A stretch of 61,967 bases of DNA, the filler included, from Diploschistes diacapsis (taxonomy: Eukaryota): NCBI GenBank assembly GCA_023645945.1. It is 16 parts of 16 records of this genome, joined end to end, with 100 filler letters (N's around TTAATTAATTAA, not from the genome) between each part and the next. Parts side by side here need not be neighbours in the genome. Positions count along the whole stretch, not along the records: positions 25,170 to 27,546 come from JALAIB010002233.1; 15 more parts are not named here. The stretch is one strand, 5' to 3'. This document shows positions 25,500-56,340 of this stretch, one piece after another. A program made the position numbers and the translations under genes. Below the pieces are notes generated by a model, which did no database searches, had not been told where the DNA came from, and saw nothing but the letters and a program-made list of their open reading frames with translations. Each line of letters begins with the position of its first letter. Positions within the stretch are counted from its first letter, which is position 1.

Positions 25500-27546
25500 T
25501 TATCAGCCGCCACTTACTGCTGTCGTTAGGTTATAATAGATTTTCGAGAATTTATAGTAGTTATGAATGTCTTGGAAGATTAATACGAACAGTATTTAGT
25601 GGTACGACGGAAGTTATAGATTCTTACGGAGAAGATATGGGATTATATACGACAATATTATGATCTATCGGAGTACGGATATGGGGGTATTACGAATATT
25701 ATTAAAGTTATTTAACGAAACTGTTATTTCGAAGGAATGAAGAAATAAGTTACGGACTTTATTAAATAATACGAGAGCTGTTAGAAAAATAAACATTCTA
25801 CGTATAGAAAATATAGGATTCTATAAATTATTAAGAAACCAGATTAATTATAAAAAACAATAACGATGGATTTTATAATCAAATTATTAATATCTAAGGA
25901 TCCAGTAATAGATGTTTCATATAATAATATTTAGGTCATAATAAATAAGTTTAATAATAAACCTTACTACATATCTTTTAGAAAAGACTATAATGTAAGA
26001 TAATTATATCACATATAGATAGATCGAATTGTGAGAATTTATAAATATTTAAAAAAAATTATTAACGATAAAAATAAGTTCTTTATTTTAAAATATTGGA
26101 AAATCATGATAGAAGTATTCGGCACGAAGTTAAAGCATTTAAACGTTTATTACTTATAAATAGACGGTTAAATAGAAAGAATAAACTAGATTTTTAAATA
26201 GTATTTACGGCATTACGTTAATTAAAATATGGATAACTAGGTTAAATTGTAATTAAACGCTCAATATTACCTTAACAACAGATATAGAGAAATTAAGAAG
26301 ATTTAAAATATATAATTACTCAACGACAAGGCATTGAATAATATTAAAAGACTAGAAATCTTAAGGAAGAATCCTTAGCTAAAAAAGAAGAATAAGGTCT
26401 ATTTGTATACGAATAATTTCAAGACACGTAAACCTTTTAAGAAACTCGATCACGTTAAAATTAAACTTTTCTTTATCGATAAATAACCCGTTATACCGAA
26501 TAAAATTAAACGAGTTAATTATCGACTTAAGTTATTAAAGGACGCGAAAGTTTATCTAATGTTTTATTCCCGATATCTCGAATTAACATATCTAGATATA
26601 CCGTTATAAAAAATCTTTTATTTCGAATTAAATAACGAGAACGAATACGAAATCGAAAGAATTCTGAATGATGGTTTTAAGAGATTTCTTGTTAAGTAGA
26701 AAGGATACTTAGCGGAGTAGAATATATGGGAATCTTTAGAAAACCTGAGTAACTATAGAAATAAGATAAAGAAATATTATAAACTTATTTAATTTGGAGG
26801 GATAAGAGCTTTATTCTTTAAAAATTAATTTAACTAAACCGGCGATATTGTAGTTAATTTTGATAATTCTGGACCAAATTCCGAAGGCACGTCTTTCTAA
26901 ACGTTCGCGTACGTTTCGAACGATTTTAAATCTAGTTCTTTCGTTAAATATTTCGTTTACGCGTCCGTACGATCTTTCGTTAATTTAAAAACTTTTCGAT
27001 TACGACGAATACGACATTTACGTTAGAGACAACGATCTTTAATCTCACGAAGTTATTTTTTTAATTTTTTCTTTTATTTATTATCCTCGTTAATAAGTTT
27101 TTTATCTTTATCGATCTCGTCTTTTTTCGAAAGGATGGTCCGTTTAATTACCTTTTATGTAATAGAAATACAGTTCTTCTTACCGGACTTAATATAACGG
27201 ACGCATTTTATTAAGATAGAAGGTATTTTGATATAATCGTGAGAAAATAAGTAATGATTATAAAATAATATGTTTAGAAAACTTCGAAGACGAATGATAA
27301 AGTTTAAACGTTTCTTTTGTATTAAAGATAAAGAAGACATCGTTTTTCTACGATTTAGGATTCTCTTTTGTTTAGTATTTATATTAATTTTTCGGTGCTT
27401 GTCGGGTCGATAAAGTTGAAGGAAGGGGATAATATTACGATCTAAGGTACTAGTCTGGAATACTTAGCACGTAATAGTTAGTCGAGTACTTCCCAATCAT
27501 TTCTTATATATAGTTTAATTAGGGTAATACAGGTCACGTGACGAGT
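25500..27546 (+). mobile_element. RIP-degraded Ty3/Gypsy chromovirus 3' half (integrase, chromodomain, PPT, start of 3' LTR at 27433)
   Basis: TMDFI; YYL*IDG*IER (= YHPQTDGQTER); chromodomain EYEIERIL..FLVK*KGY..NIWE..ENL; PPT gaaggaaggggataa followed by tattacgatc (RIP form of TGTTACGATC). Confidence 0.9.
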
Positions 27547-33581: not shown

Positions 33582-34185
33582 ATGGCTGATAGAAGAGGCG
33601 GAGGCAGAGGCAGAGGCGAATATAGAGGTAGAGGCGACGACGGCAGAGGAGGCGGTGGCGGCGGTGGTCGGGGCCGAGGAAGCTATGAAGGCAGCCGTGG
33701 GAGCTTTGATAGAGGCGGTCGTGGGGGCTTCGACAGAGGAGGCGGTGGCGGTGGTAGAGGAGGCGGTGGCGGCGGTGGTTGGGGCCGAGGAAGCTATGAA
33801 GGCGGTCGTGGGGGCTTTGATAGAGGCGGTCGCGGAACCTTCGACAGAGGAGACGGTGGCGGTGGTAGAGGAGGCGGCCGAGGTGGGCCGAGAGAAAATG
33901 ATCGTTTATTCGTAAATACAATGATCCGGGTTGGAATATAGAACCTAAGCTGACATGTTTCTAGGCGTCAAGATGGCGGACAACCGACCTACGATTCCAA
34001 GGTTAATACTATCGAGGAGGCCTATATCAAGCGTGGGCAGGCCGAGATGCCGGACCTCAGCAAGCTCTCGCTGGCAGAGACCTTCCCCCTACGACCGGCT
34101 TACGGAACAGAAGATTATGTCTAGATTAACTATTTTGCTCTCTATTTTCCTATAAAGCTTTCCGTCTACTACAGTTTACGTTAAA
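33582..34185 (+). pseudogene. 5' relic of a QDE-2-like Argonaute (RGG-rich N-terminus plus start of N domain)
   Basis: RGG tract; intron 33912-33964 (gtaaat..gctgac..ctag); then ...LSLAETFPLRPAYGTE..V*INYF, matching the Argonaute PxRPxxGTxG...LWANYF motif. One extra A near 33897, a premature TAG, and truncation by an LTR at ~34230. Confidence 0.75.
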
Positions 34186-39328: not shown

Positions 39329-39695
39329 TGAGACAGCCCAGCCCAGGGGCCTGCCAAGCTGGGCCTGCCAAGCCACGGCAGGGTCAATGCCCAGGTGCTT
39401 GCCAAGCCACGGCAGGGTCAATGCCCAGGTGCTTGCCAAGCCACGGCAGGGTCAATGCCCAGGTGCTTGCCAAGACACGGCAGGGTCAGGAGGTGGCTGT
39501 GTAGATGAATAGTCCCCGAACCCCGGTAAGCTAGCACCCACACTACTTAACGGTACCCTCCTCCCATCTAGATAATTTCTTTTTCAGCTTTTCGAATCGA
39601 GACCTTTTATTTATAAATACTTAAGCTATATTTAATCCTTCCGAATCAGATCTAACCCTTAATAAAGTAATATCCTTTCTTACGCTAGCGTTTTA
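39329..39695 (+). mobile_element. LTR family A with internal 34-bp tandem array
   Basis: TGAGAC start and gcgtttta (RIP of CA) end. The unit gccaagccacggcagggtcaatgcccaggtgctt starts at 39367, 39401 and 39435, with a partial copy at 39469. Confidence 0.85.
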
Positions 39696-39981
39696 TATTC
39701 GAAAAGTTTATTTTACCTTCGTACTCGTAACGAGAGTTTAAAACGTTAATCGAACATTAAATATTCGAATAAATCCACGATAACCGGAACTCGAAAGTAT
39801 TATTTACCGACTTATTATAAATAATGGCTCTCGTTGATAGAAAGGATTAAAAAAGAAAGAAAAAATCGATAATATTTCCGTNNNNNNNNNNNNNNNNNNN
39901 NNNNNNNNNNNNNNNNNNNNNNNNNTTAATTAATTAANNNNNNNNNNNNNNNNNNNNNNNNNNNNNNNNNNNNNNNNNNNN

Positions 39982-40567: not shown

Positions 40568-42341
40568 TGTTATGATCTCTATCTATACAAGGTATACACG
40601 AGTAGGATCAAGGTGGGTTTGGTCTCTGTTAGAAGAGGAGTGTGGTAGGAAAAGAAGATAAAGCAGTTATAGGTTTTAGACTATTTTTAGAAAGAAGGCT
40701 TTAAAATGATAAAAATAACGAATATAAATTGATCCCGAGCAATAATTAGGAATATTTATAAAAATAAATATACTTTCTTTTACGAAAGTAGAGTCGTGTT
40801 TATATATAATTAATTCGCTCGTCGTTTATCGTAAGTTTAGCGAGCGGTATTCTCGAGACTCGCCGTTTATAAGAATAAACGCGACCGTCGAGCGATAACG
40901 AAAGCTTGCTCGCCGCTTATAAGAATAAGTATGAGTAATAAACGCATTACGTGATCCTTAGTCCCGTGATTGATTTATTTATAAAATTAGGACGTGTTAA
41001 GTTTAATATTTGGATCGTAATATTATCCTTTTTTTTTAATATTATCGGCCCGATAATTCGCCGAAGGGTCTAATATAAATATTAAATAAAAGAGAATCTT
41101 AAGTCGTGAGATAACGATATCTTTTTTAACTTCTCGTAATCGGTCCGTTAAACGAATCTAATTTTCCCGTTCTATCGCTCGTTATAAAATCCTTATTATT
41201 TTTTTTTATAAATATTATTCTTTTAACGATAAGTTTTATTTCGTTATACCGTTTGGTTCTAAAGTTTTAAAATATTCGAAATATGTACGCCGTGATCGTC
41301 CTTGCGTGGAAATGTTATAAACTCGCTTAAAACGGACATAAAATGTATTAAAGCGGTTTATATAAAAGGATATTAACCGGTTTTTTAAACTTATTCGTCG
41401 TATCGAGCGGAATAAACTTCTTTTATAAAAAACATAAACCCGTGTTAATATAAAGATAGAATATCTGGCTGAATTATTGGCTGTAAAAAACAAAAACTTA
41501 AATCGTATTATGATTAATATGTCGATGTTTGAGGCGAAGATTCTTAACGGAAATCCATCCTTTTTCGTTAATGATCCCGGGGAGTTGTCTTCGTTGAATG
41601 GAGGTGCCGCTACTTAACTAGCTGGTTTATTTGGCTGGTAAGTCTGCGGTATTTTTTTAACTTGCTCCCGCAGTTGCTCAAGTTTTCTAGGAGTTCCCAC
41701 GTGTTCTATTCTGACGGATATCTTTTTTATTTAATAAGGAATCTTTTAAAACTATTATTTAAAATTTTCTCGATTTCGTATTCGTTTTTATTATTAGGTT
41801 CGAAGTAGAAAATTTTTTATAATAGTATATCTGGATGTGCTAGTTCGAGATATCGCGAATGAAATATTGGATAAATTCTCGCGTTTTTTGGTAGCTTGAA
41901 TCGATAATTAACTCGTTTAATTTCGTCCGGTATGACGGGTTGTTTATCGATAAGAAAGGGTCCGATTTTAACGTAATCGAGTTTCTTAAAGGGTTTGCGT
42001 GTTCTGAAATTGTTTGTGTATAAATAGACCTTATTTTCTTTTTTTAATTAAGGATTCTTCTTTAAGATCGCGTGTCTTCTAATATCATTCAGTATCTCGT
42101 TATTAAGTGATCGTGTATTTTAAATCTTTTTAACTTCTTTATATTTGTTGTTAAGGCAGTATTCGGTATTTGATAATAGTTCAACCTAATTATTTATATT
42201 CTGGTTAACGTAATGCCGTAAGTATTATTCGAGAATTTAATTTTTTTTTTTATCTAATCGTTTGTTTATAGGTAATAAACGTTTAAATACTTTAGCTTCC
42301 TGTCGGACGTTTTTATTATAATTTTCTAGTATCTTTAGATA
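40568..42341 (-). mobile_element. Chromovirus 3' end: integrase, chromodomain, PPT and 3' LTR family B (40568-41022)
   Basis: EYEIEKIL..RFLIK*K.YPSE*NTWE..ENLSNC; reverse PPT ttatcctttt after the LTR; LTR matches 48935-49389 and 61473-61927. Confidence 0.9.
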
Positions 42342-42441: not shown

Positions 42442-43197
42442 AAGAAAATATTTATATAATATAATAAATATATTTATTATATTTATTATTCAACGGTTAT
42501 ATTCTTGAACATTTTTTTTTATAAAAGTGATAATTTATTTAATTTAATATCGCGATAACGGTTTATAATATCTAAATAATCCTAGTTTGCTTATCGCTTA
42601 TGTATTATTTCGACTATTAATACCGTTTTAATAATAGTTTTTTTATTTTCTCGACGAGGGTATCTTTTCTTGCTTTTATTATTTAGTTTTTTTTAAGCTT
42701 TATATCTTGTCTTATTTTTAATAATATGGTTTTCACTATTTCTGATATATTCTTTAATATAGATTCGAAATCATCTTCTTATTTTAACGATTCGTTTATT
42801 AATATTTTATTCTTAAATTACGAGTCTCGTTCTTATTACGGGATATAATCTAAATCTTCTTTATTAAATAGAATAATTTTAGATCGTTTATTTCTTTCTT
42901 TTCTTTCACTTTCTTTTATTTTAATTTAATTGCGCGGGTTTACCCTACGTGTACGTTATAAAGAACGTGTTATCTTATCGGATCGTCGTCTTTAAAAAAG
43001 ATAAAATAATTAAAACTATAAAAAATAGAATAGGACAATATAGCAAGATAACTATACGCAAGGCAGGTTCATACTAGGACTAATTATTAAAGAAAAAAAG
43101 AGAGTAAGAAGGAAAAAATCCCCCTTTAAGTACCAGCAAGCCAAGACCCTGAACGCCGCTTGTCCGACTCTTGGCATGCTCCTCGCTTGGCCTTACA
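42442..43197 (-). mobile_element. Gypsy 5' LTR family E (43017-43197) plus gag start
   Basis: Reverse-complement homolog of 52987-53745, differing mainly by C>T/G>A transitions. Confidence 0.85.
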
Positions 43198-44473
43198 GTA
43201 AGCACCGCGCTGTTGTTCGGGTTTTTAGCCGCCTCCGTTTCTTCGTTTAGTTGATCAGTAAGGTACTTCGCTTGTTTTATAGATTTCTTTTCGATTAATT
43301 TAAGAATCTTTCGTAATCATTTTATCCGGGCCTTATGTTCCATTAGTTGAAAGAAAAGCTTTCGTCTTTTCTCTTCTTTTAATTCTAATCTAGACTTCGC
43401 CTAAGTACACATCCTATTTATAATCTTTTAAGATGTCGATACATAGTTCTTCCGACCAAAACAAGTACACCTTTCATAACGGGAAGAAATGGACGGTATG
43501 ATAATATAACGGTAAGAAACAGAATAGTAAAAATAAAAGAAGTTAACGATTTTGTTTACTCGAAGGATTCGATCGGCAAGTTTATGGTTGCGAGAAGTTA
43601 AAAAAGATATCGTTGTTTTACGATTTAAGATTCTTTTTTGTTTAGTATTTATATTTATTTTTCGGAACTTGTCGGGCCGATAAGACTGAAGAAAAAATAT
43701 AGTATTACGATTTAAATAATTAAATAATAGTTTATTTAATATTTTATAATTAATCGGGCACTTCTTAATTTTTTCATATATATAGCTAATCACGGATATT
43801 AAATTACGTGAGACAGCTCAGCCCAGGGGCCTGCCAAGCTGGGGCTGCCAAGCCACGGCGGGGTCAATGCCCAGGTGCTTGCCAAGACACGGCAGGGTCA
43901 GGGGGTGGCTGTGTAGACGGGTAGTCCCCGAACCCCAGTAGGTCTAACATCCATACTACTTAACGGTGCCTTCCTCCCACCTAAATAGTTTCTTCTTCAG
44001 CTTTTCGAATCGAGACCTTTTACCTGTAGATGCTCAGCTACACATAATCCTTCCGGATCAGGCCCAGCCCCCGGTAGTGTAGTATCTCATTCCTGCGCTG
44101 GCGTTTCATTCCGTGATTGATAGATGTTCGATGATAAATGTTTATTAAAACGAATTTACCCGAGCAGTTATTTATTAGTAATAGTTCTATCGTGACAGCT
44201 TTGTTATCGGCAATCAGCTGTCGTTTTAAATTATATAAAAACATCATTATGGTTCCTGTAAGTCGCGGTGTGTTTATTTCTATAGATATCTTTAATTCTT
44301 ACACGAGATCAATTTATATTCGTTATTTCTATTATTTTAAAGCTTTTTTCCAGAGATCAGTACCGATTTATAATTGATCTACTTCTTTATCTATTTGCAT
44401 TCCTTTTCTATACGAGACCAAACCTACCTTGATCAATACCTCGTGTCTACCTTGTAGAGATAGAGATCATGAC
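43198..44473 (+). mobile_element. Chromovirus 3' region and B-related 3' LTR (43703-44473) containing a nested family-A solo LTR (43809-44108)
   Basis: Homologous to 27150-27546. The outer LTR ends ...gagatcatgac. The inner LTR runs TGAGAC..GTTTCA, with flanks ttacg/ttccg. Confidence 0.8.
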
Positions 44474-44901: not shown

Positions 44902-46295
44902 TTATTAAAATGAATATCCGCGTCATGCTAAAAAAACCGTAATAAGGATACGCCTTTTAAAATTATATAACGATAACTTAATGCTATATTAAAAATATAA
45001 TTATAATTAAATCTGAATTAAACGGTTCATTTATAACACCTAAAGAACATTAAATAGGAAAAAAGCCGTCAATAGATCACTTCCGCGTCTAAAAATTAAA
45101 ATATTATAACTATATAAATCCAAAATTATTACCTAAACGACAAAATAAGCTAATAAATAGAACAAAATTCTATATATTAATTAAATACACCGACACCGAT
45201 AGATAGTATAAGATCTAAGTATTAAATCTTTAAAAAATCATTAGAACGAGTTCGATCAGATTTAAAAAAGATAAAACGTTTAATCTTTAAGAACTGAAAC
45301 TTCCCGAAAATTATAAGGAAAACGATAACATAATACCTATCCGAAAGTTAATAGAACGACTAACCGCTGACCCAGTACATAATATCGGAGAAATAAATAT
45401 CTCGTCAATAATAAACGGCAATAACACGTCAATCACGAGCGATAACAGAGCATCAATAATACAAAAACAGGGAATTTAAACGAATATACTGAACCATCTA
45501 AATCAATAATAAATCACAACATCCTAAAGACCAATACTCCAGCTAAAAGATCTAAACCAATAATAGATTACGGCACCCTAGAGACCGATATTCCAGTCAA
45601 AAAGTTCCTCCGAATAAAAATTTTAAAAAAAAATACTAAACTTAAATTCAATCTTAAACCTAAATTCCGCCCTAAACCTGAACCCGCCAAGATAGACGAA
45701 AAAAATACTCCAATAATAATAACTATATATCAGAATAAAGAGCTATTTAACACGACCCTTGTTACTAACAAACAAGAACGGGATAATAAAAAGTACTCGT
45801 CGATTAAAACCTTAAAGAATCTTATCGCACTAATCGCCAGCGAATAAGAAATAACCAGCAATATTAAGCTAAAATTATCTCGAATTAGTATTCTAAAAAG
45901 CTATAAAAAAGCCGTCAATAACCCAATTTTTAAAAGGGAATAAAAGGAAGCAATAAGGAAGAAGATCGATTCTTTACTCCTAAATTAAACCTGAACTGAA
46001 CTACCTAAACCAAAGAATACTAACATAATAAGCTCCAGATGGGTATTCGACGTAAAATACAATCTTAATAGCGATATTAAGAAGTTTAAGGCTAGACTAA
46101 TCGCAAAAAGGTTCTCGTATAAACAAAAAATCGACTTTAATGAGATATTTACTCTTATTATTCGAACGGATTCCCTACGTATCTTATTAATAATCATCGC
46201 AGCAAAAGATCTAGAATGTCATTAGATAGACGTTAATAACGCGTTCACGGAAACGTCATTAACATATTAGATCTATATGGCGTTATTTGAATTTA
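44902..46295 (+). mobile_element. RIP-degraded Ty1/Copia integrase C-terminus and reverse transcriptase
   Basis: *KEAI..KIDSL..N*T*, SSRWVFDVKY, KFKARLIAK.FS...IDFNEIF and IDVNNAF. Confidence 0.9.
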
Positions 46296-46570
46296 TAGGC
46301 TGGCCGTTGCGTGCCACGGTCACCGACACGGACATTACCGCGAATGTTTTCTCGGCACGGACACTTCCACGGACACTACCGCGAATGTTTTCTCGGCACG
46401 GACACTTCCACGGACACTACACTACAGTAAAAGCACGGACACGGATACTACAATTAAAAATTTTAAAACACGGATACTTCCACGGACATTACACTACAAT
46501 AAAAACACGAACATAAACACTACGGCTAAAAATTTTAAAACACGGACATTTCCACGAATATTATATTATA
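46296..46570. mobile_element. TAGGCTGGCC-ended element terminus with ACACGGA subterminal arrays, inserted in Copia RT
   Basis: taggctggccgttgcgtgccacgg followed by repeated cacggacac units. Confidence 0.75.
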
Positions 46571-47358
46571 ATACAGTACATCACCCGACACCAACTTGGA
46601 TTAAACTAATTATCCCGTTCTCTTAAGTACTATTAATATATAGCAAATTGAAAAGAAATCGAAATAAAGAAAAGGACTGATATCCTACCGACGAAATACT
46701 TGACAAGCGCCCCCCAGGGCAACAGCGGAGAGATGGCAGCGATGCAACGAGAAGGAGGAGAGTCGCGTCGCGACGCGGTTCATCCTCAGCAGGACCGCGT
46801 AGGCGGGCCGGCGGGGAGCTCGAACGCAAAAAATAAATCAAAAAACGTAATATAAACAATCGAAACATACGTAAAAATAAAATAAAACGAAAAATTAATA
46901 TAATTCTAAATTATAATAACGGAAGCAATACGCAAGAACGGCGCCGACGCGTCGGAACTTAATCGTAAAAAAAACGCGTCGAAATTTAAAAAAAACTAAA
47001 TTCGATTAAAAAAAATATAAAAACGATATAAAATATTATAAAAAAATTAAAAAATAAGTATAATAATATCGGGAATAAAAATTAAATTTAAATAACGAAT
47101 ACTTTTTTCGGAAGAAAGAATAAAATATTAAAAATATTAAAAAAAACGATTAAAAAAATTATAATTCGGTTAAAAAATAAAATATAAACGAGAAAATAAT
47201 AAAATAAATCCGAATTAATAACGGACGCGAAAAAAATCGGGATAAAGAATATTATTATNNNNNNNNNNNNNNNNNNNNNNNNNNNNNNNNNNNNNNNNNN
47301 NNTTAATTAATTAANNNNNNNNNNNNNNNNNNNNNNNNNNNNNNNNNNNNNNNNNNNN

Positions 47359-48934: not shown

Positions 48935-49715
48935 TGTTATGATCTCTATCTATACAAGGTATACACGAGTAGGATCAAGGTGGGTTTGGTCTCTGTTAGA
49001 AGAGGAATGTGGCAGGAGAAGAAGATAGAGTAGTTATAAATCTTAGACTATTTTTGATAAAAAGGCTCTAAAATAATAGAAATAACGAATATAAATTGAT
49101 CCCGAGTAATCGTTAAAGATATTTATAAAAATAAACACGCCCTTTTTCACGAAGGTAAAGTCGTGCTTATATATAATTAACTCGTTCGCCGCTTACCGTA
49201 AGCTTAACGAGCGGTGTTTTCGAGACTCGCCGCTTATAAGAATAAACGCGACCGTCGAACGGTAACGAAAGCCCGTTCGCCGTTCATAAGAATAAGCGCG
49301 AGTAGTGAGCGTATTACGTGATCTCTAATCCCGTGATTGATTTATATATAAAATTAGGACGTATTAAGTCTGGTATTTAGATCGTAATATTATCCTTTTC
49401 CTTCAATATTATCGGCCCGATGATTCGCCGAAAAATCTAATATAAGTATTAAATAAAAAAGAATCTCAAATCGTAAAATAATGATGTTTTTTTTAACTTC
49501 TCGCAATCGGTCCGTTGAACGAATCTAATTTTCTCGTTTTATCGCTCGTTATAAAATCCTTATTACTTTTTTTTATAAATATTATTCTTTTAACGACAAG
49601 TTTTGTTTCGTTATGTTATTTGGTTCTAAGATCCTGAAATATTCGGAATATGTACGCCGTGATCGTTCTTACGTGGAAATATTATAAACTCGTTTAGAAC
49701 GGACATAAGATATAT
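48935..49715 (-). mobile_element. Chromovirus 3' LTR family B (48935-49389), PPT and 3' region
   Basis: Near-identical to 40568-41350 apart from transitions. Confidence 0.9.
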
Positions 49716-52171: not shown

Positions 52172-52309
52172 NNNNNNNNNNNNNNNNNNNNNNNNNNNNN
52201 NNNNNNNNNNNNNNNTTAATTAATTAANNNNNNNNNNNNNNNNNNNNNNNNNNNNNNNNNNNNNNNNNNNNGTTTTAATAAATTCACGATAATATTTCGG
52301 TGAATTTAT

Positions 52310-52816
52310 TATAATATAATATCCGTGGCAGTATCGTGTTTTAAAATTTTTGGCGGTAATATCCGTAGAAATATCCGTGTTTTAAATTTTTTAGCCGTAA
52401 TGTCCGTGTCCGTGCTTTTATTATAATGTAGTATCCGTAAAAGTGTCCGTGTTTTAAAATTTTAACGGTAATGTCCGTGGCAGTATCGTGTTTTAAAAAT
52501 TTTCTCGGTAGTGTCCGTGGAAGTGTCCGTGGCACGAAACGGCCAGCCTAACCGTAGTGTCAGTATCAATGTTTTAGATTTTTTTGCTGCGGTATCCGTG
52601 TTCGTGGATTTACGGAAATATAATGTCCGTGTTAGTATCCGTGTTTTAAATTTTTTAATTGCGATATCCGTGTCCGTGGATTTATGGAAATATAATATCC
52701 GTGTTAGTATCCGTGTTTAAATATTTTTAGCTGCGGTGTCCGTGTTAGTATCCGTGTTTTAAAATTTTTTGCTGTAGTGTCCGTGTCAGTGTCCGTGGCA
52801 CGAAACGGCCAGCCTA
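52310..52816. mobile_element. Two tandem termini of the TAGGCTGGCC-ended element (ends at 52550 and 52816)
   Basis: gtgtccgtggcacgaaacggccagccta occurs twice, each preceded by (t/g)tccgtg arrays. Confidence 0.75.
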
Positions 52817-52986
52817 TATTTAATATCAGCGAAAAATTAGTACGGGGAGGATTTTAAAAGCGCTCTCGCGACGAATTTAAGCGAAGAATATCTTCGTTTA
52901 AAGATCCGATGAAAAAATAGATCAATCAAAATAACGTTATCGAGAACGTGATAAAGCTGTAATCGTGAAAATAAGTAAAAAAGATT

Positions 52987-55013: not shown

Positions 55014-56279
55014 CTGAATAAAGAAATTAAAATAAATATTGACGAAGATACGTTATCGTTGTTAAAAATGTTTCACATTAGCATGTCCCCGAAGGGATGA
55101 GCCAAACTATTAAATGACCGTGCTCTCGATAGCCGAGTTTAGTGAATTTCACTCGGACAATTTTGTCAAGAGAGCAGGCTGCTAAACCTATCATCCCGAA
55201 CTTCCCGGTGCCCTAGCGCTCGAGCCTAACTCGGCTATGTGTTGATTGGCTCTTAGCGCAATGACTTTCATGGCTGCCAAAGCAATTCACGCGCCTCCCG
55301 AAACCATACCCTAACCGTCTCTTCCAGCCGCCGGCGGCAAGTCCTGTAAAGCGTCATCCGCTCACGGTCCACATTCAACGATGTTCCGATACCGAACAAC
55401 ACCTTGTATGCTTTCCTCCACTATACGTACCATTCCGTAAGGATACAATATTGTATGCATGGACTGCAGCACGGGGAAACGGGAGAAAAGAGCATTGCAT
55501 AATTCGCGAAGTTGGGCCATATAGGAAAACCTGGCGTAGGGCCTTGCAAAATCCGACGCCGGGGAAGGCAATTTGTTCGTGCCGACGGACAACAATCGGC
55601 ATGATGCCATATGCCATCCGCGATCTGTGAGAGCGCGTTGGACGTCTATAAAGTCGACTTCAGGAGCACTATCATTTGGGCCATCTCCCGCCATCCCATG
55701 CTTTCACTCCCTTTGCTCAGCACATGTACCCGAATTCCTCATCATCCTCCAACGAACGAGTCCTCGGACGAAAGCTTCGAACACTCCACTCGTCACGATT
55801 CTGGACTTTCCGTATCATCCATCATTGCAGTGTACCGCGGTTTGCTGCTATCAGCAAGCTCTCGGTGGACCGGTGTACTGTCAATCCCCGGATCTGTCCT
55901 CAGAGAGCCCATCCTGTATAGCCGCCTCGATCTGACCATCTGGGCCACCCTTCTTCCGACCTCGTTTTTCAGGCTGGGTACTCATGGTTTGCAGGGTGCC
56001 AACTGTACCGAAGTGGAGGCTGAAGTGGAAAAGAGAAAAGGCGGTATTGTGGGAGGGATGAGAGATGGGACGAGAAGGTGAGAGGGAGGTCGGCCATTCT
56101 TGTAGAACAGCGCGCTCCACGCCAACGACGACGACAAGGCCAGAAGACAATCATCCCTGGAAAGGAGCTTGAACCCTCGAGGCTGCGAAGCCGCATAGAG
56201 TCTCATTTCATGAACCCTAAAGCCTGACGGTTTCTGACGAGGTACTTCAGGGACTGCGCCGTCGACGGGTGAGCATGGT

Positions 56280-56340
56280 GAGCAGACCTGAGCCGACCTG
56301 AGCCGACCTGAGCCGAAGCTTAGCCGGGCCTGAGCCGACA
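56280..56340. repeat. Degenerate 10-bp tandem repeat (CCTGAGCCGA), about 5-6 units
   Basis: gagcagacctgagccgacctgagccgacctgagccgaagcttagccgggcctgagccgac. Confidence 0.8.

Follow-up and report, generated by a model that had tools for sequence, protein, structure and literature searches.

Antisense open reading frames (ORFs) between pol and the 3' long terminal repeat (LTR) have been known for years without a function, as described in the pertinent passages of PMC7264820. The arrangement is already known from brtn of Boty, an ascomycete element whose copies carry an antisense ORF after a chromodomain-bearing pol and before the 3' LTR; the passages that cite brtn give no domain, function or link to the U3 region (PMC8365987, PMC7264820, PMC4227169, PMC5987419). 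Similar antisense ORFs occur in plant Ty3/gypsy elements (Grande gene23, RIRE2 and Retand), and retroviruses have antisense genes driven from the 3' LTR (PMC7264820). Here we describe an ORF of this kind in chromoviruses of Diploschistes diacapsis, seen in a window of 61,967 nucleotides from assembly GCA_023645945.1. The ORF and the TATA-proximal block of U3 keep to the same type, even as the intervening and flanking DNA is exchanged.

The ORF agrees with Boty brtn in position and orientation, and on the published passages the two can be likened by arrangement only; a BRTN sequence was sought and is absent from the supplements of PMC8365987. With the plant ORFs and the retroviral antisense genes it has in common its position, its orientation, a candidate promoter of its own and a proposed regulatory role, and for these the relevant text of PMC7264820 reports no zinc-cluster motif and assigns no function. 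The closest working analogy is VANC of the Arabidopsis VANDAL transposons, an element-encoded protein associated with family-specific short words in arrays, for which the relevant passages of PMC5735166 report demonstrated binding and demethylation. Both systems pair a protein type with a family-specific repeated word, here in few independent lineages, but VANC belongs to a plant DNA transposon, whereas the fungal pairing is one of sequence types. Among the papers listed by full-text searches, none dealt with a zinc-cluster accessory gene, U3 pairing, or Tax/Tas- or VANC-like self-regulation for fungal LTR retrotransposons. New here are a test of the pairing of ORF type and U3 block against linkage, the heptad rule with its seventh Cys and the x5 variant of the Cys motif.

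The window consists of short contigs strung together by filler (N44-TTAATTAATTAA-N44 spacers in 25070-59622), so adjacency across a spacer is not real neighbourhood. Positions 1-25069 are one gene-like contig; the bulk of the window beyond is A+T-rich DNA with the composition left by repeat-induced point mutation (RIP), and its contigs carry the 3' part of the chromoviruses only. The copy at 27 kb lies on JALAIB010002233.1 (25,170-27,546).

A degraded antisense gene and its intact relatives

The 27-kb contig carries, in order, the 3' end of a plus-strand Ty3/gypsy pol with its chromodomain (Pfam Chromo, 28.1 bits; cut-off 25.1), the antisense frame, a 95-base spacer and the start of the 3' LTR. 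The original prediction quoted antisense peptides with six Tyr or Cys columns from this copy and from one at 43.5 kb, and both are present letter for letter. The first opens at a minus-strand ATG at 27340, and its columns at 27262, 27253, 27235, 27205, 27196 and 27172 read Y,Y,Y,C,Y,C; those of the second (43535-43445) read Y,Y,Y,Y,C,Y. The stop reported where Trp is expected is also there, as TAA at 27157 and at 43430, and intact relatives have Trp at this position. Across the RIP-affected part of the window the x2-x5-x9-x2-x7 spacing turns up 2 times, and none of 200 shuffles contains it.

DNA searches of the same genome, with 65 loci fetched of 121 matches, distinguish three types of ORF, namely A (at 27 kb), B (at 43.5 kb) and C (at 41 and 49 kb). 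The spacing is 2-5-9-2-7 in types A and B and 2-6-11-2-6 in type C, the motif being located in 19/20 A, 14/20 B and 19/25 C loci. The two quoted peptides, taken at first for one subfamily, are 29% identical with coil lengths of 74 and 60 and belong to the different types A and B; the true ORF is also longer than quoted, about 170 codons, and includes a seventh conserved Cys column. That different Cys survive in different copies is borne out, since 3 of the 6 columns are Cys in the two quoted copies and other copies fill the remainder. Column by column, Cys is found in 2, 5, 7, 5, 2 and 12 of 19 type A copies and in 6, 6, 6, 5, 9 and 3 of 14 type B copies; the first column of type C is Cys in 0/19. 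The Trp column is still TGG in 4/19 type A and 2/14 type B copies. The claim that the columns are always Tyr or Cys holds in part: its universality is circular, because the copies (19/20 A and 14/20 B loci) were chosen with the C/Y pattern, but this circularity does not extend to the Cys that are present.

Frameshift-free copies (15 A, 10 B and 6 C) have 7.1, 3.9 and 5.2 stops per copy in the ORF frame, compared with 9.3-14.4, 6.5-12.3 and 4.7-14.3 in the other five frames. RIP does not produce transversions, and transversion sites fall at third codon positions in 14/17 cases for type A and 19/27 for type B (together 33/44, p 2e-8). Stops occur in all 87 matches that the assembly gives to an intact relative. 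Intact homologs were recovered elsewhere by a profile built from 31 natural copies, with stops read as X: 160 proteins at E 0.001 or better and 40 at 1e-10. The six Cys are complete in 69 of the 150 homologs listed, with x6 between C2 and C3 (as in type C) in 63, the 2-5-9-2-7 spacing in 5 and x8 in 1, and one homolog (P0153) is identical to the 27-kb frame at 70/137 residues (51%) without gaps. The matches are named 'hypothetical protein' throughout, bar one phage capsid-like label, and none bears a BRTN label.

A metagenome scan yielded 22 loci. In 17 of them a pol that ends in a chromodomain lies tail-to-tail with the ORF, 4 are cut off within 170 bases, and 1 is a 29-residue match in G+C-rich DNA; Pfam Chromo is above its cut-off in four intact loci. 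One locus (L072) is a whole element with gag, pol and LTRs, in the order gag, protease, reverse transcriptase (RT), RNase H, integrase (IN). Among 105 pairs of 15 loci, which are not independent of one another, the ratio of nonsynonymous to synonymous divergence (dN/dS) is at most 0.42 in 98; 3 close pairs have values of 0.62-1.14 and 4 are saturated. The intact homologs are thus under purifying selection. At loci L066-L082 the ORF tail overlaps or abuts the last chromodomain codons on the opposite strand, a fixed junction for cassette exchange. Two more distant relatives (L085:309-530 and L086:590-859) have a short first frame followed by a second with the coil and tail, a split that suggests an intron.

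An alternative reading makes the frame a by-product, with antisense RNA being what matters or the pattern arising from RIP composition. RIP does create Tyr and Lys codons, one opposite-strand frame of type C is as stop-poor as the ORF (4.7 vs 5.2 per copy), and a word-index search with degraded copies as queries returned no match. The third-position bias, dN/dS, the heptad-only length changes described below and the intact six-Cys homologs nonetheless make this reading very improbable; as regards protein coding they refute it, while leaving room for an added role of antisense RNA. The quoted peptides come from RIP-degraded copies of a genuine antisense gene that is under selection and lies after the chromodomain end of pol and before the 3' LTR, and the selected accessory protein that the original prediction proposed is upheld by the third-position bias, the intact homologs and the low dN/dS (98 of 101 computable pairs).

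Architecture of the encoded protein

The protein comprises a basic N-terminal helix, a six-Cys head resembling Zn2Cys6 domains, a coiled coil of strict heptad length, a seventh Cys and an acidic tail. Across 55 homologs the six Cys, the Ser-Trp following C6 and the seventh Cys hardly vary, and the seventh column is Cys in 5/16 type A copies where it was located. In 71 homologs, both the N-terminal helix and the loop between C5 and C6 are basic. C6 and the seventh Cys lie 53, 60, 67, 74 or 88 residues apart in 90/90 sequences in which the latter was located (110 examined); all these values are 4 mod 7, with 74 in type A, 60 in type B and 53 in type C. In a model of one intact homolog (P0002; predicted local distance difference test score, pLDDT, 89.9), an N-terminal helix and the Cys region are followed by a single helix from 62 to 149.

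The heptad lengths and a passing two-copy model predict a homodimer formed through the coil. For residues 1-150 of P0002 the model scores 0.48 against 0.03 for the best control, with 76% contact agreement and a pLDDT of at least 68; this mark is attained by 21/30 solved homodimers and 0/23 single chains, and the score may reflect coiled coils that the predictor has memorised. The modelled dimer is antiparallel, as contacts such as that of 114 with 76 show, and these contacts bring the seventh-Cys region close to the partner's head.

Like this protein, Gal4, Leu3, Hap1 and Ppr1 have six Cys arranged in C-x2-C pairs and a helical coil after them, and Hap1, Ppr1 and Leu3, all Zn2Cys6 proteins, give the best of the weak structural matches to the head fold. 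The present protein differs from them in its C2-C3 spacing of 5 in types A and B, which the PF00172 pattern C-x2-C-x6-C-x5..16-C-x2-C-x6..8-C does not admit, in having no equivalent of Gal4 Lys18, and in its seventh Cys. Its coil spans 53-88 residues, its dimer model is antiparallel, the whole chain has about 170 residues, and the associated U3 words are not CGG triplets.

Pairing of ORF type with the U3 block

The LTRs were split at a common CACGTG box and at the TATA box; 3/52 copies were dropped, and 40 are long enough for the TATA-proximal block, which was absent from all three first queries. This block clusters by ORF type in 40/40 copies, with an adjusted Rand index of 1.00, compared with 0.58 for the spacer, 0.63 for the U3 start and 0.68 for R. 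Correlation with ORF distance, using RIP-immune distances in 42 copies, is 0.99 for the block, 0.64 for the spacer, 0.80 for the U3 start and 0.59 for R. The type B ORF is found with an A-like, a C-like or its own U3 start, and with the B block every time; one copy (L032) joins ORF B and block B to a spacer, U3 start and R of type A. Since the spacer and U3 start between ORF and block recombine freely, plain linkage does not explain the pairing. Searches using the U3 blocks returned 75 LTRs, of which 12 lie beside an ORF, including 3 previously uncounted, and match it in type in 12/12 cases; 53 are without an ORF and 10 are too short.

Each block has words of its own. GCGAG[CT] occurs 3.5 times per C copy and 0 times in A or B, and GACAG[AC] 1.3 times per B copy and 0 times in A or C; the type A word is less clear. 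In the intact relatives the last 110 U3 bases carry GTCGA, GCACG, GCTCG, GGAC[AG]C or GCTCA according to ORF type. These words exceed shuffles at P <0.05 in 9/11 cases, and none is enriched in the first 70 bases. Four of them share one lattice with a 9-base period and spans of 14, 23 and 32. The CACGTG box is common to U3 of all three types and to the LTRs of distant intact relatives (L067, L085 and L086), and it marks the junction of U3 modules; it is a possible host basic helix-loop-helix site.

Comparison of the sequences shows that the ORF is itself exchanged between pol backbones. In 4 A, 2 B and 4 C copies, transversions per site between A and C are 0.02-0.04 in pol, the within-type level, and 0.02 in the spacer, compared with 0.16-0.21 in the ORF and 0.21 in a shuffled control; the type C pol 3' end has 77% DNA identity to 26084-26776. 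Because A and C share near-identical pol, the types are swappable cassettes. Among the intact relatives, synonymous divergence in pol and ORF, respectively, is 0.13 vs 1.05 for L069/L072, 0.29 vs 1.53 for L072/L075 and 0.38 vs 1.62 for L070/L071, and L070 and L072 share an ORF clade and U3 word on different pol and R-U5 backbones. The original prediction proposed comparing the ORF phylogeny with that of RT and IN; the ORF and pol trees of 15 loci reject each other (approximately unbiased test, p 2e-42 and 1e-5), and the ORF does not follow integrase. Retention across divergent subfamilies, which had been offered as an argument for selection, falls away, the pol of A and C being near-identical and their ORFs standing at shuffled-control divergence.

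We give about an even chance to a regulator that the element encodes and that is paired with the U3 array of the same element, each type regulating its own LTR through predicted binding. The protein would be made from an antisense transcript starting near the polypurine tract on the 3' LTR side, would dimerise through its coil and would bind repeated half-sites of its own U3 block. A search for RNA runs for L072, the whole element, returned none. Most likely, each element type would activate its own LTR or keep it open, and mismatched recombinants of gene and U3 would then fail to amplify. The candidate promoter word upstream of the antisense ATG is weak because the DNA is A+T-rich after RIP; similar TATA-like words occur in the spacers of intact relatives, with TATAWA in 27/50.

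Several observations weigh against such a regulator. The 40 copies represent about seven lineages, and there are therefore no more than two or three independent exchanges. Both the 27-kb and the 43.5-kb copy lack the U3 block, the first because its contig stops short and the second through an insertion. L077 and L080 have an ORF 75-76% identical to that of L070 and an N-domain only a little more distant (37-39/56 vs 42/56), yet a different U3 word. The intact contexts come from metagenome assemblies, in which chimeras are possible, and 15/17 belong to one pol family and are not independent. Pfam Zn_clus (PF00172) does not reach its cut-off of 21 bits (18.7 at best), with weak rows in 5/29 intact homologs and none in 31 degraded copies, and the antiparallel dimer model holds the heads far apart, unlike Gal4. 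The Gal4-type lysine is missing from the C2-C3 loop, where position 4, to which we take Gal4 Lys18 to map, is K or R in 4/64, and the loop is neutral (net charge 0.06). Lys18 makes the CGG contact of Gal4, and Pho7, according to the same passages, lacks that lysine and yet binds DNA at a site that is not a CGG pair (PMC5559640).

The scarcity of independent events and the missing lysine would also fit a real gene without action on U3, where host factors bind the repeats, ORF and block are co-inherited and gene conversion patches the segment between them; we consider this unlikely, though a serious contender. A job of the protein elsewhere under that account, for example in a particle, nuclear import or integration step, is unlikely to the same degree. 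Short homologies (spacer, CACGTG box and TATA) flank each module, so that a middle patch can move alone. The same homologies, however, would free the block or the ORF alone, which is seen in 0/40 and 0/12 cases, and where the word differs between intact relatives, all lattice positions have changed together. Somewhat less probable again is a protein that binds its own U3 array but counters host silencing in the manner of VANC, or represses and so limits copy number. Array words that are family-specific and differ from one related element to the next follow the VANC pattern, as far as the passages of PMC5735166 describe it, and a long coil with a seventh Cys is not Gal4-like, but the acidic tail and the place of the array, immediately 5' of the TATA box, are in keeping with an activator.

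Feature coordinates, other repeats and significance

Table 1. Chromovirus features located in the window
Feature	Positions	Strand	Remarks
Type A pol 3' end, RIP-degraded	25752..26792	+	Integrase C-terminal part and chromodomain; tblastn with intact pol, E 4e-33
Type A antisense accessory ORF	26819..27340	-	Stop-broken; 3' end approximate; match to intact P0153
Type A six-Cys motif	27170..27262	-	Spacing 2-5-9-2-7; C4 and C6 kept in 27-kb copy
Type A seventh Cys column	26948..26950	-	End of coiled coil, C6 +74 residues; Tyr here
TATA-like word, candidate promoter	27376..27383	-	About 36 bases upstream of antisense ATG
Polypurine tract	27418..27429	+	
Type A 3' LTR start	27433..27546	+	U3 segment 1; CACGTG box 27535-27541
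Type B antisense ORF	43191..43610	-	Cys spacing as type A, shorter coil; tail cut near 43195 by other DNA
Type B 3' LTR start	43703..43808	+	Interrupted by another repeat at CACGTG-like box
Type C antisense ORF	41117..41596	+	Spacing 2-6-11-2-6; element on minus strand
Type C TATA-proximal U3 block	40815..40947	-	Repeated GCGAGC/GCTCGC words
Type C pol 3' end	41643..42272	-	Transversions near-identical to type A pol
Second type C ORF copy	49484..49715	+	Cut by contig end

The window also holds other repeats. One, which contains a 34-base tandem unit repeated 3.6 times at 39366-39488, lies at 43809-44109 and 39329-39696 and breaks the type B LTR exactly at its CACGTG-like box. In a G+C-rich stretch at 56279-56339 the ten-base repeat TGAGCCGACC is present in 5.9 copies and resembles the GCTCA-type U3 words; it may be another U3-type array. 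Related tandem arrays with 41- and 72-base periods and CACGGACAC-like words are found at 49-250, 46294-46573 and 52297-52818, and a G+C-rich 111-base tandem repeat is found at 33645-33877, in two copies at 92%.

For the family as a whole, the chance falls just short of even that a widespread group of fungal chromoviruses carries its own putative sequence-specific regulator and that regulator and U3 word diversify as swappable specificity pairs. On the same reading, by model and analogy, such a regulator would be a zinc-cluster protein of divergent type, with a seventh Cys and a heptad coil that pairs antiparallel, acting in self-regulation like that of Tax/Tas or VANC. Several intact proteins of the family occur in nature, and for each a cognate U3 word is predicted. 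Should the reading hold, a fungal LTR retrotransposon would possess a transcriptional switch of its own, as complex retroviruses do; the family would be a natural library of small DNA-binding domains of differing specificity, and many fungal genes annotated as 'hypothetical' or Zn2Cys6 would be parts of elements.
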